A DNA stretch of 64,000 bases from positions 15,545 to 79,544 of IMG/VR virus record IMGVR_UViG_3300031372_000005; one strand, written 5' to 3'. The notes beneath the pieces were generated by a model that saw only the letters and a list, made by a program, of their open reading frames with translations, did no database searches and was not told the DNA's origin. Below are positions 1,140 through 30,632 of this stretch, piece after piece. The position numbers and the translations under genes were made by a program. The stretch comes from a virus. Every line of letters starts with the position of its first letter. The first letter of the stretch is position 1.

Positions 1140-1446
1140 ACTCACTAACGACACGTTTTAGTAACGTGTGCTAATTTTAGTGATTAGAGTACATGACACA
1201 ATTCTGATAAGAATTCACCACCACAAACTAAGTAAAACCTTCTCCCCAGAAATTGTGGTGTCTCCCCGCCGATCAGTACACGATGTACATTCTCCTCTCG
1301 GCAATTAAAGCGGCTCATCCTCTCCTATGAGTTTTGCTTTGCATTCTTGGTAGCTGCCCTCTCCCGGTTGCCAAGAATGATTTCTAAATAATCTTGTTGT
1401 TTATAAACGATAATGCAAGTGATCTTGTCAGGATTATTTAGAAATT
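1140..1446 (+). ncRNA. structured non-coding segment with repeated UCUCC motifs
   Basis: Consecutive hairpins (1218-1260, 1268-1302, 1314-1331, 1343-1379, 1380-1446); TCTCC at 1241, 1261, 1291, 1321, 1360; G-U pairs favour the + strand. Confidence 0.6.
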
Positions 1447-29846: not shown

Positions 29847-30632
29847 ATGGCTATCACACCTTTTTTTGAGGAGCAGTATTTAGAGGTTGCTCGGACCAGA
29901 GTAACAGAGCAATTTAAAGATAAGGTTATCTTTGATAAATATTTGCAACTTCTTTTAACTGCTCAAATTGAGATTCAGAAAACCTTCAAAGACCTTATGC
30001 AGCTTCGTTCGTTAGATACGGCTACAGGCGAACAGTTAAATATCATCGGTAGAATTGTTGGGCAAGATAGGGTTCTATTAAATTCTGATCTTTATAATTT
30101 CTTTGGATTTGAGGGTGCTCTAAAAGCAGGCTCAATGGGAACGCTATCTAATCCCGCTGTAGGCAGCATATTCTATTCTTTGGGTGAGCCATTAGGTGGA
30201 AACATTGAGCTTGATGATGAAACCTATAGACTTTTTATACGAGCAAAGATTCTTAAAAACACTACCGCATCTACTTCGGAAGAGTTTATCAGAAGTGTAA
30301 ATCTTATATTTGGTGATAGTAATGTTATCGCGATTGAGGATACTACCTCTGCAAATATAATGGTTTTGTTTAATAGACCTCTATCTGATTTTGAAAAAGG
30401 ACTTCTGCTTTATGTAGATTCTAGTGCTGGTTATCCATCAGGTCTTATTCCTAAGACTATCGGTGTAAATATAAGGTATGGAGAATACACACGAACGGAT
30501 ACACCGATAAGCTGGTCATTTACTTACAGTAATGACGGTTCATGGGCATACAATACCCCCTACAATTATAACCCAGTGCCTACATACGCTGATAAATTTG
30601 ATGAATCAAACATCGAAATTACTTTATACTAA
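29847..30632 (+). CDS. baseplate wedge protein (DUF2612-like)
   Basis: LDTATGEQLNIIGRIVG...FFGF...DDETYRLFIRAKILKN. Confidence 0.75.
   Translation: MAITPFFEEQYLEVARTRVTEQFKDKVIFDKYLQLLLTAQIEIQKTFKDLMQLRSLDTATGEQLNIIGRIVGQDRVLLNSDLYNFFGFEGALKAGSMGTLSNPAVGSIFYSLGEPLGGNIELDDETYRLFIRAKILKNTTASTSEEFIRSVNLIFGDSNVIAIEDTTSANIMVLFNRPLSDFEKGLLLYVDSSAGYPSGLIPKTIGVNIRYGEYTRTDTPISWSFTYSNDGSWAYNTPYNYNPVPTYADKFDESNIEITLY

Follow-up and report, generated by a model that had tools for sequence, protein, structure and literature searches.

The subject of this analysis is a non-coding RNA of ~235 nucleotides (nt), encoded at 1212-1446 on the + strand of a 64-kilobase (kb) window, i.e. the whole stretch of DNA that was analysed, which comes from the 83-kb IMG/VR virus record IMGVR_UViG_3300031372_000005. 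We found it to be a real and conserved RNA with relatives in many uncultured phages, all of them built on the same five-helix plan: the loops are the conserved part, while the stems vary freely yet stay paired. The loop motif, CUCC and mostly UCUCC, is close to the anti-Shine-Dalgarno (anti-SD) tail of 16S rRNA, is displayed several times per molecule, and may, by analogy with better-studied RNAs, pair with ribosome-binding sites (RBSs) of the GGAG type. A preliminary description of the sequence had drawn a hairpin cluster over 1140-1446; this stands for 1212-1446, the conserved RNA, whereas the hairpins of 1140-1211 have no counterpart in the related loci.

The RNA, its fold and its family

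On the + strand TCTCC occurs at 1241, 1261, 1291, 1321 and 1360, with a further copy at 951, exactly where the preliminary description had located them. The five copies within 125 nt (1241-1364) are clustered more densely than TCTCC is anywhere else in the window, whichever strand is considered: block shuffling (300 replicates) never produced five per 125 nt (the maximum being four, in 2 of the 300), and a Poisson estimate for a five-copy cluster, corrected for window number, is ~7e-5. The total over the window is ordinary (99 observed vs 99.9 expected), and hence the signal lies in the clustering. Folding of 1131-1460 as the + strand yields -92.1 kcal/mol (z = -7.1, against z = -3.3 for the minus strand), and in this predicted fold all five copies, where most had been claimed, are unpaired: they lie in the P1 loop, the P1-P2 linker, the P2 internal loop and the loops of P3 and P4. 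The stems picked out in the earlier description, which are those given for P1 to P4 below, are likewise all present. The parts of the RNA in this fold are as follows, each with the form that it takes across the family in single-sequence folds of 34 loci:

1212-1218, + strand: 5' leader AAUUCAC, single-stranded, the next CC of the conserved UUCACC beginning P1; in the family, invariant single-stranded GUUUCACC
1219-1260, + strand: P1, 8-base-pair (bp) stem CACCACAA/UUGUGGUG with a 26-nt loop; in the family, a large A-rich loop with a mini-hairpin
1261-1267, + strand: P1-P2 linker UCUCCCC, single-stranded and CU-rich; in the family, CU-rich
1268-1302, + strand: P2, stem GCCGA/UCGGC; in the family, 5-8 bp with a loop of 10-19 nt
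1306-1341, + strand: P3, 13-bp stem including GGCUCAU/AUGAGUU, with three G-U pairs and the loop CCUCUCCU at 1319-1326; in the family, 11-14 bp
1342-1379, + strand: P4, 15-bp stem including CAUUCUUGGUAGCUG/CGGUUGCCAAGAAUG, with three G-U pairs and the loop CCCUCUCC at 1357-1364; in the family, 11-21 bp with a loop usually of 8 nt
1380-1446, + strand: P5, long AU-rich stem closing a three-way junction with two 5-bp mini-hairpins, free of the CU motif; in the family, a long AU-rich stem closing a three-way junction

Relatives were located by using as an anchor the conserved gene at 1592-2002, which codes for a protein of 136 amino acids (aa); this gave 9, and then 39 viral and 14 metagenome loci. 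This gene is again preceded, at a distance of 100-400 nt, by clusters of YCTCC even where its product is only ~40% identical, and the same five-helix plan emerged at the 34 loci, each of which was folded independently. A structure-free MAFFT alignment of 27 members, analysed with RNAalifold, recovered P2 and P5, with 24 of 27 pairs compensated. A covariance model seeded with three sequences matched 35 loci at full length and on the + strand, with scores from 20 to 268 bits. In the alignment derived from this model, standard pairs fill 92.7% of the pair cells (64.4% when shuffled and ~42% with slid partners), both sides have changed in 62 of the 68 pairs, and the covariation score is 0.58 as against 0.16 for shuffles. 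Such an alignment is biased toward the model's own structure, which counts against taking these figures at face value; however, the independent folds and the MAFFT/RNAalifold result show the same signal, and it is therefore no artefact of fitting. Helix by helix, pairing reaches 86-98% in the model's helices 1-3 (P1), which also show compensatory changes, and 94-98% in helices 6-7 (P3), while helix 8 (P4) shows compensatory changes in 14 of its 14 pairs with 95% of cells paired.

The folded strand is the + strand. Read in this sense, the family alignment contains 163 G-U or U-G cells vs 34 A-C or C-A cells, from which the strand follows; the G-U pairs that the preliminary description had read in the same way are seen in P3, P4 and P5 of this phage. 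All 36 significant hits of the covariance model likewise lie on the strand of the flanking tRNAs and genes.

The conserved loops can be described closely. We counted 98 CU loops in the 34 RNAs, with exactly three in 28 of them; CUCC is present in 97, UCUCC in 88, CUCCU in 85 and CCUCC in 17 of the 98. Their composition is 53% C, 44% U, 3% A and 0.2% G, i.e. ~97% pyrimidine, as compared to 47% purines in the remaining loops of the same regions. They range in length from 4 to 20 nt, the register of the motif within them varies, and the linear P1-P2 linker often bears the motif too, a combination that fits the recognition of single-stranded sequence. Motif conservation, on which the preliminary description had made its proposal depend, is thus found in the loops throughout the family. 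The phage studied here has two additional motif sites, in the P1 loop (the UCUCC at 1241) and in the P1-P2 linker, which account for the five copies first noticed. Its P2 carries a mini-hairpin insert that leaves AUUCUCCUC, with the UCUCC at 1291, unpaired on the 3' side; the P2 of relatives is a simple hairpin whose loop, of 10-19 nt, is all pyrimidine, and their linker reads UUUCCUC, UUUCUCC or UAUUCAC. The UUCACC of the leader consensus is invariant among 27 aligned members. In terms of complementarity, UCUCCU is the exact complement of AGGAGA, pairs with AGGAGG through one wobble, and is one base off the 16S tail CCUCCU.

Two hairpins upstream of the RNA, which had also been pointed out earlier, display related loops. 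That at 872-897 has the loop UCGCCCUCCG, containing CCCUCC, on a CUGA/UCAG stem, and its homologues at four related loci (L014, L015, L022 and L034) have covarying stems and the loop core GGCCUCC. That at 936-968 has the loop CUCUCUCCUACUAAAAU, which includes CUCUCUCC, and is found as an identical copy at the locus L025. With conserved CCUCC-loop hairpins in these upstream modules, the anti-SD theme is found along the entire RNA cluster.

The RNA is present in more than 40 related contigs of uncultured FelixO1-like phages and in 7 of 7 tested genomes of at least 95% completeness (G000 and G005-G010). One of these, G005, was initially scored negative and considered as an RNA-free relative, but the RNA was then found by direct cmsearch (45 bits; 61 bits in G006), leaving no RNA-free genome among the seven near-complete ones for a comparison of presence and absence. 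Searches of Rfam with cmscan gave tRNAs and chance hits only, both for 1-2400 of the window (E<=10) and for six further members (E<=5), and a search of the whole window at gathering scores had no hit besides tRNA. The family is thus uncatalogued, and universal in one clade of uncultured FelixO1-like phages. Neither the region nor the first 12 kb of the window has a DNA match to cultured phages. A whole-record model search did not find the RNA in Limnohabitans phage DC31, Curvibacter phage P26059A, PAK_P3, phiK7A1 or vB_PseuGesM_254, a soft negative in that its prefilter missed the known positives G005 and G006; direct cmsearch of bases 1-45000 of Felix O1, tRNA cluster included, returned a 13-bit hit at chance level only.

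Some further features of the ends of the RNA deserve mention. In the predicted fold of the window a CAUGA/UCAUG pairing (1192-1196 with 1453-1457) encloses the entire RNA, and in relatives with a downstream tRNA-like module the motif UAUUUCUCAUGUGU stands directly after P5 (flanks of L016, L018, L024, L034, L039 and L057). P5 was considered as an intrinsic terminator and rejected as such: it is AU-rich, its members have no consistent U-run, and the terminator scan left 1380-1460 unmarked. One member has a P5 mini-hairpin that looks like rrn boxA, and the two ends of the RNA look like type I-F CRISPR repeats; both likenesses were judged coincidental, as the bases concerned lie in covarying stems and their sequences are not conserved across the family.

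Genomic setting and tRNA linkage

The window encodes a terminase, portal, capsid, tape measure, ribonucleotide reductase and collagen-like tail fibre, with best protein matches among FelixO1/PAK_P3/KIL-like myoviruses (terminase ~42% identity; capsid protein 39% identity to Limnohabitans phage DC31). The phage also has spanin-type lysis genes, and its relatives include phages of Gram-negative bacteria. The RNA lies in a 1.26-kb stretch (330-1590) with no credible open reading frame, in and beside which we recognised the following features:

340-369, + strand: sigma-70 promoter TTGACA-N18-TATAAT, 12/12 consensus, rightward, the only strong promoter found
1056-1130, + strand: tRNA-His (GUG) with encoded CCA, called by ARAGORN and by Rfam (tRNA, 60 bits); the RNA begins 81 nt later
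1142-1183 and 1200-1215, + strand: two predicted spacer hairpins between tRNA-His and the conserved RNA
1455-1562, + strand: tRNA-like element, 9 nt past P5, with the T-arm GUUGGUUCGAUUCCAAC and a D-arm-like hairpin
1592-2002, + strand: conserved gene for the 136-aa protein, with a basic N-terminus, a helical core and an acidic tail, of no known family

The promoter probably drives the whole 1.2-kb non-coding cluster, the RNA included. The spacer hairpins are specific to this phage and stand outside the RNA family, blastn of 1140-1211 having matched none of the related loci. In the phage tRNA-His, position -1 is A and position 73 is C, and the bacterial-type pairing of G-1 with C73 is not genome-encoded.

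The constant feature of the RNA's position is its placement relative to tRNAs. In at least 10 loci it begins 0-10 nt past the 3' end of a tRNA-Thr, Gly, Arg or Leu, and in many relatives the leader adjoins the 3' CCA of the tRNA; this arrangement suggests that the RNA is probably released from a precursor by tRNA-processing enzymes. Its 3' neighbour varies, being tRNA-Gln (L038), the tRNA-like element (the window and L034) or the 136-aa gene after ~30 nt. The tRNA-like element is 80% identical in L034 (2267-2387), T-arm-like hairpins stand at the same position in L024 and L022, and neither ARAGORN nor Rfam calls the element at 1455-1562 a tRNA; processing of the RNase P type at this element may set the 3' end of the RNA. 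Other genes can come between the RNA and the 136-aa gene, which then lies as much as several kb downstream of it; the RNA is therefore not simply the leader of that gene. A single RNA-library contig spans the tRNA-RNA junction of a relative, at low depth, and may derive from DNA.

The 136-aa protein appears restricted to this uncultured phage clade, searches of 50,697 phage records and of 185,579 species genomes having found no homologue. Its predicted fold is helical at low confidence (predicted local distance difference test, pLDDT, 65) and its Pfam hits are all sub-threshold. The gene's RBS is a weak AGG in the window and in all relatives, a weak site that comes after an RNA full of anti-SD-like loops. 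The idea that the loops sequester this RBS was rejected, since there is no conserved complementarity and the site is only AGG.

The DNA was found in phyllosphere samples, which are its likely source, and runs from soil, compost, silage, fermentation, freshwater and wastewater contain related pieces. No host-specific signal came from atlas look-ups of the reductase or of the GH5 enzyme. In Felix O1, too, a tRNA cluster stands ahead of the terminase. There, a 222-nt gap (30181-30402 of the Felix O1 record, L088) between the last tRNA (Cys) and a pre-terminase gene has a strong multi-hairpin fold (-69.7 kcal/mol) and UCUCC twice near its 3' end; it occupies the same genome position and stands outside this RNA family.

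Likeness to known small RNAs

The closest known kind is that of the cuckoo/alpha-r14 small RNAs (sRNAs; Rfam ar14), of which the phage RNA is not a member. They include RSs0680a-d, i.e. CcsR1-4, of Rhodobacter/Cereibacter and SmelC397, i.e. NfeR1, of Sinorhizobium (PMC4615179, PMC10746234), are ~70-200 nt long, and consist of 2-4 hairpins that vary in their stems but carry the same anti-SD motif in each loop, without multiloops (PMC4615179). In NfeR1, three redundant motifs silence mRNAs via RBS occlusion (PMC10746234). The phage RNA resembles them in its adjacent hairpins P2-P4, with variable, covarying stems and one conserved purine-free anti-SD-like loop motif, as well as in its variable copy number (2-4 modules in cuckoo, 3-5 sites in the phage RNA). 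It differs in the motif itself, which is CUCUCC, UCUCCU or CCUCUCCU as opposed to the cuckoo CCUCCUCCC, which is seen in none of the phage loops listed; in the lack of an Rfam model match among the seven members tested; and in the extra motif-free domains P1, with its inner mini-hairpin, and the conserved three-way junction of P5. Further, a cuckoo gene stands by itself on the chromosome and has a promoter and a terminator of its own, whereas the phage RNA is fused to tRNA operons of lytic-type FelixO1-like phages (~40% G+C).

A comparable logic is seen in the UCCC-motif sRNAs of Firmicutes, namely LhrC, Staphylococcus RNAIII and RsaE, which have redundant C/U-rich sites in loops and a single-stranded linker: LhrC of Listeria (LhrC1-5), for instance, has three redundant CU-rich sites in loops and linker (PMC4132741). 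These sRNAs target G-rich SD regions, and one RNA can in principle bind several mRNAs. The phage RNA has no sequence or structural homology to them, a different motif, different hosts and about twice their size. In its multi-hairpin build, with a short motif repeated in loops, and in its multivalency the phage RNA also recalls CsrB/RsmY/RsmZ, but the motif on the transcribed strand is CUCC, not GGA, and with 0.2% G in the loops CsrA binding is not expected.

As to genomic origin, precedents exist in the T4 tRNA cluster, which encodes the small stable RNAs rnaC and rnaD (species 1 and 2), and in the E. coli tRNA-spacer RNA 3'ETS-leuZ, a tRNA trailer that acts in trans by base-pairing and sponges sRNAs. 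To our knowledge, the T4 species have no assigned function, unexplained for decades, and no repeated CU loops. Like these, the phage RNA lies in or at the end of a tRNA operon, on the same strand, and is presumably released by nucleases; it differs in having no known sequence relation to any of them, and 3'ETS-leuZ is short and comparatively unstructured.

The function is known for very few of the regulatory RNAs that phages encode. For this family a clear, testable hypothesis can be put forward, given its strong conservation, its well-supported fold and the fact that, the leader aside, its only conserved single-stranded sequence is the anti-SD-like motif in several copies. The multi-hairpin design with a repeated anti-SD loop also occurs here, in a family without detectable similarity to the alphaproteobacterial one.

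Proposed pairing with ribosome-binding sites and its alternatives

That the loops pair multivalently with GGAG-type RBSs is the most likely mechanism, though we put our belief in it slightly under the halfway mark, because no target could be pinned down. In the scheme that we infer, as regards processing, abundance, action in trans and the identity of the targets alike, the strong promoter would give a transcript common to the RNA, the tRNAs and further small RNAs, and this precursor would be cut by tRNA-processing enzymes, giving a 5' end at the tRNA CCA and, in this phage and some relatives, a 3' end at a tRNA or tRNA-like element. The five helices would then serve as a scaffold from which the P2-P4 loops and the linker (here also the P1 loop) expose the CUCC core, usually as UCUCCU or CCUCUCCU, i.e. 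the complement of GGAG/AGGAGA and a near-copy of the anti-SD tail of 16S rRNA. Each loop could pair with the GGAG core of RBSs on host mRNAs, phage mRNAs or both; pairing would compete with the 30S subunit and lower or re-time translation, and the three to five redundant sites would provide multivalency. The preliminary description had favoured much the same reading: its structural half stands, there being a + strand RNA with several unpaired UCUCC sites and a conserved fold and conserved loops, while its functional half is an argument from analogy.

The SD usage of the phage bears on this proposal. Per genome or window there are 16-33 cases of AGGAGA ahead of an ATG and 4-8 of AGGAGG, in agreement with the earlier statement that GGAGA is the SD type of many genes here. 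However, the same ~4:1 bias, and a similar frequency of GGAGAG, are present in Felix O1, which lacks the RNA; the bias is therefore no evidence of co-adaptation of phage SDs to the loops, an idea that we dropped. Sense-strand GGAGAG occurs 13 times in the window, with ~8 occurrences being RBSs (39053, 41581, 45179, 47785, 52000, 58645, 8296 and 62672); there are 10 in the 21 kb of the leftward DNA-metabolism block (37600-58700, minus-strand genes) vs 2 in the 36 kb of the rightward structural block. Computed duplex energies for the loop CCUCUCCU and the 16S tail are -7.3 vs -6.9 kcal/mol at AGGAGA and -13.4 vs -8.4 kcal/mol at AAGGAGAGG. From these, and from the value at the canonical site given below, the loops are predicted to equal the ribosome at AGGAGA, outdo it at GGAGAG-type sites and lose to it at the canonical site.

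Several observations weigh against such pairing. At the canonical site UAAGGAGGU the loop reaches -7.4 kcal/mol and the 16S tail -12.8 kcal/mol, so that competition would be expected only with high abundance of the RNA or at GGAGA(G)-type sites. The phage's own genes use GGAG-type SDs in 23 of 83 crude gene calls, which leaves it unclear on what basis host and phage mRNAs would be discriminated. The phage has no sense-strand GGAGAGG, its ~8 GGAGAG-type RBSs in the window are no more frequent than in Felix O1, and we found no conserved mRNA target of the loops. Neither the 136-aa family nor the terminase, each scanned against 185,579 species genomes, gave anything that would point to the host. 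The RNA-library contigs from this locus reach only 1214-1290 at a depth of ~2 and may be DNA carry-over. Finally, the RNA lies 30-60 nt before the 136-aa gene in ~60% of loci, with no clear terminator between them.

This last arrangement would suit a cis-acting leader, which might stabilise a downstream late mRNA (for the 136-aa protein, a GH5 enzyme and tail fibres, the terminase lying beyond these), aid ribosome loading on it or guard it against termination, or which might guide the processing of the tRNA precursor. Such a role seems improbable to us. It would agree with the absence of a promoter between RNA and gene and of a consistent U-tract past P5, with the weak AGG of the 136-aa gene in all relatives, and with the placement of the RNA where a long untranslated RNA cluster gives way to the structural genes, comparable to the Felix O1 tRNAs before the terminase. 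However, at least 8 contigs have other genes, tRNAs or tRNA-like modules (0.15 to >3 kb) lying between RNA and gene, while the RNA keeps its place after the last tRNA, the loops have no conserved complementarity to the gene's RBS, and a simple stabilising hairpin would need no 3-5 redundant copies of a motif. We regard it as somewhat less unlikely, and yet still on the unlikely side, that the RNA is a sponge or decoy whose pyrimidine loops titrate a protein and not mRNA. The protein could be a pyrimidine-binding host factor, such as ribosomal protein S1, cold-shock or KH proteins, or Rho, whose primary sites bind YC dinucleotides; other candidates are a recogniser of the 16S 3' tail (Era or RMF-type hibernation factors) and a sequence-specific defence ribonuclease, with the RNA as bait. 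Multivalent RNAs with 3-5 sites are typical of protein sponges like CsrB/RsmZ and CrcZ, purines are absent from whole loops of up to 20 nt, beyond the needs of a 4-6-nt pairing seed, and the failure of a specific mRNA target to emerge points the same way, as does co-transcription with tRNAs from a consensus promoter, which suggests the high abundance that titration requires. Set against this, loop size and motif register are highly variable, which is unusual for a structure-specific protein site; no adjacent candidate protein gene tracks the RNA, the 136-aa neighbour being without a recognisable RNA-binding fold; and the best-studied RNAs of the same design (cuckoo/NfeR1, LhrC and RNAIII) work by base pairing.

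Two other possibilities may be largely set aside. The preliminary description had mentioned, as its less favoured option, a minus-strand RNA with loops AGGAGAGG that would sequester CsrA/RsmA like RsmY/RsmZ/CsrB. GGA in hairpin loops is indeed the signature of CsrA binding, and the minus strand would offer 3-5 of them, but on that strand the 163 G-U cells of the + reading, which far outnumber its 34 A-C mismatches, become mismatches themselves. Together with the model hits, all of them on the tRNA and gene strand, the weaker fold of the minus strand, the want of an Rfam match to CsrB, RsmY or RsmZ on either strand and the rightward direction of the only strong promoter, this led us to reject it as next to impossible. 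Hardly more probable is an element acting as DNA, such as a packaging site, a replication origin or protein-binding iterons, or else a functionless tRNA trailer or decayed tRNA remnant. Short repeated motifs in non-coding DNA near packaging genes could suggest the former, and a tRNA cluster, where pseudo-tRNAs occur, the latter. Yet compensatory stem changes that include G-U imply selection on a folded single strand and not on duplex DNA, and the motif spacing is unphased and differs among relatives. Likewise, an RNA kept in phages whose 136-aa neighbour is only ~40% identical is under selection, and ARAGORN and Rfam detect no tRNA-like cloverleaf in it.

A more far-reaching reading, about as improbable in our judgement as the cis-acting leader, is that the RNA, at tRNA-like levels, mimics the 3' tail of 16S rRNA in 3-5 copies, as would its CCUCC-loop neighbours, and thereby re-programmes initiation globally or serves as bait for an anti-SD-recognising protein, be it a host factor or an anti-phage nuclease. 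If true, this would be a principle of counter-defence or takeover not described for phages. Should the loops pair with RBSs as favoured above, the RNA would be a phage-borne, tRNA-operon-derived counterpart of cuckoo/NfeR1 and LhrC, and a new viral way to tune or seize translation; if it is a protein bait, it would point to a host factor important to this phage clade. The RNA family also provides a clean marker of an uncultured phage clade of leaves, soil, compost, silage, fresh water and wastewater.

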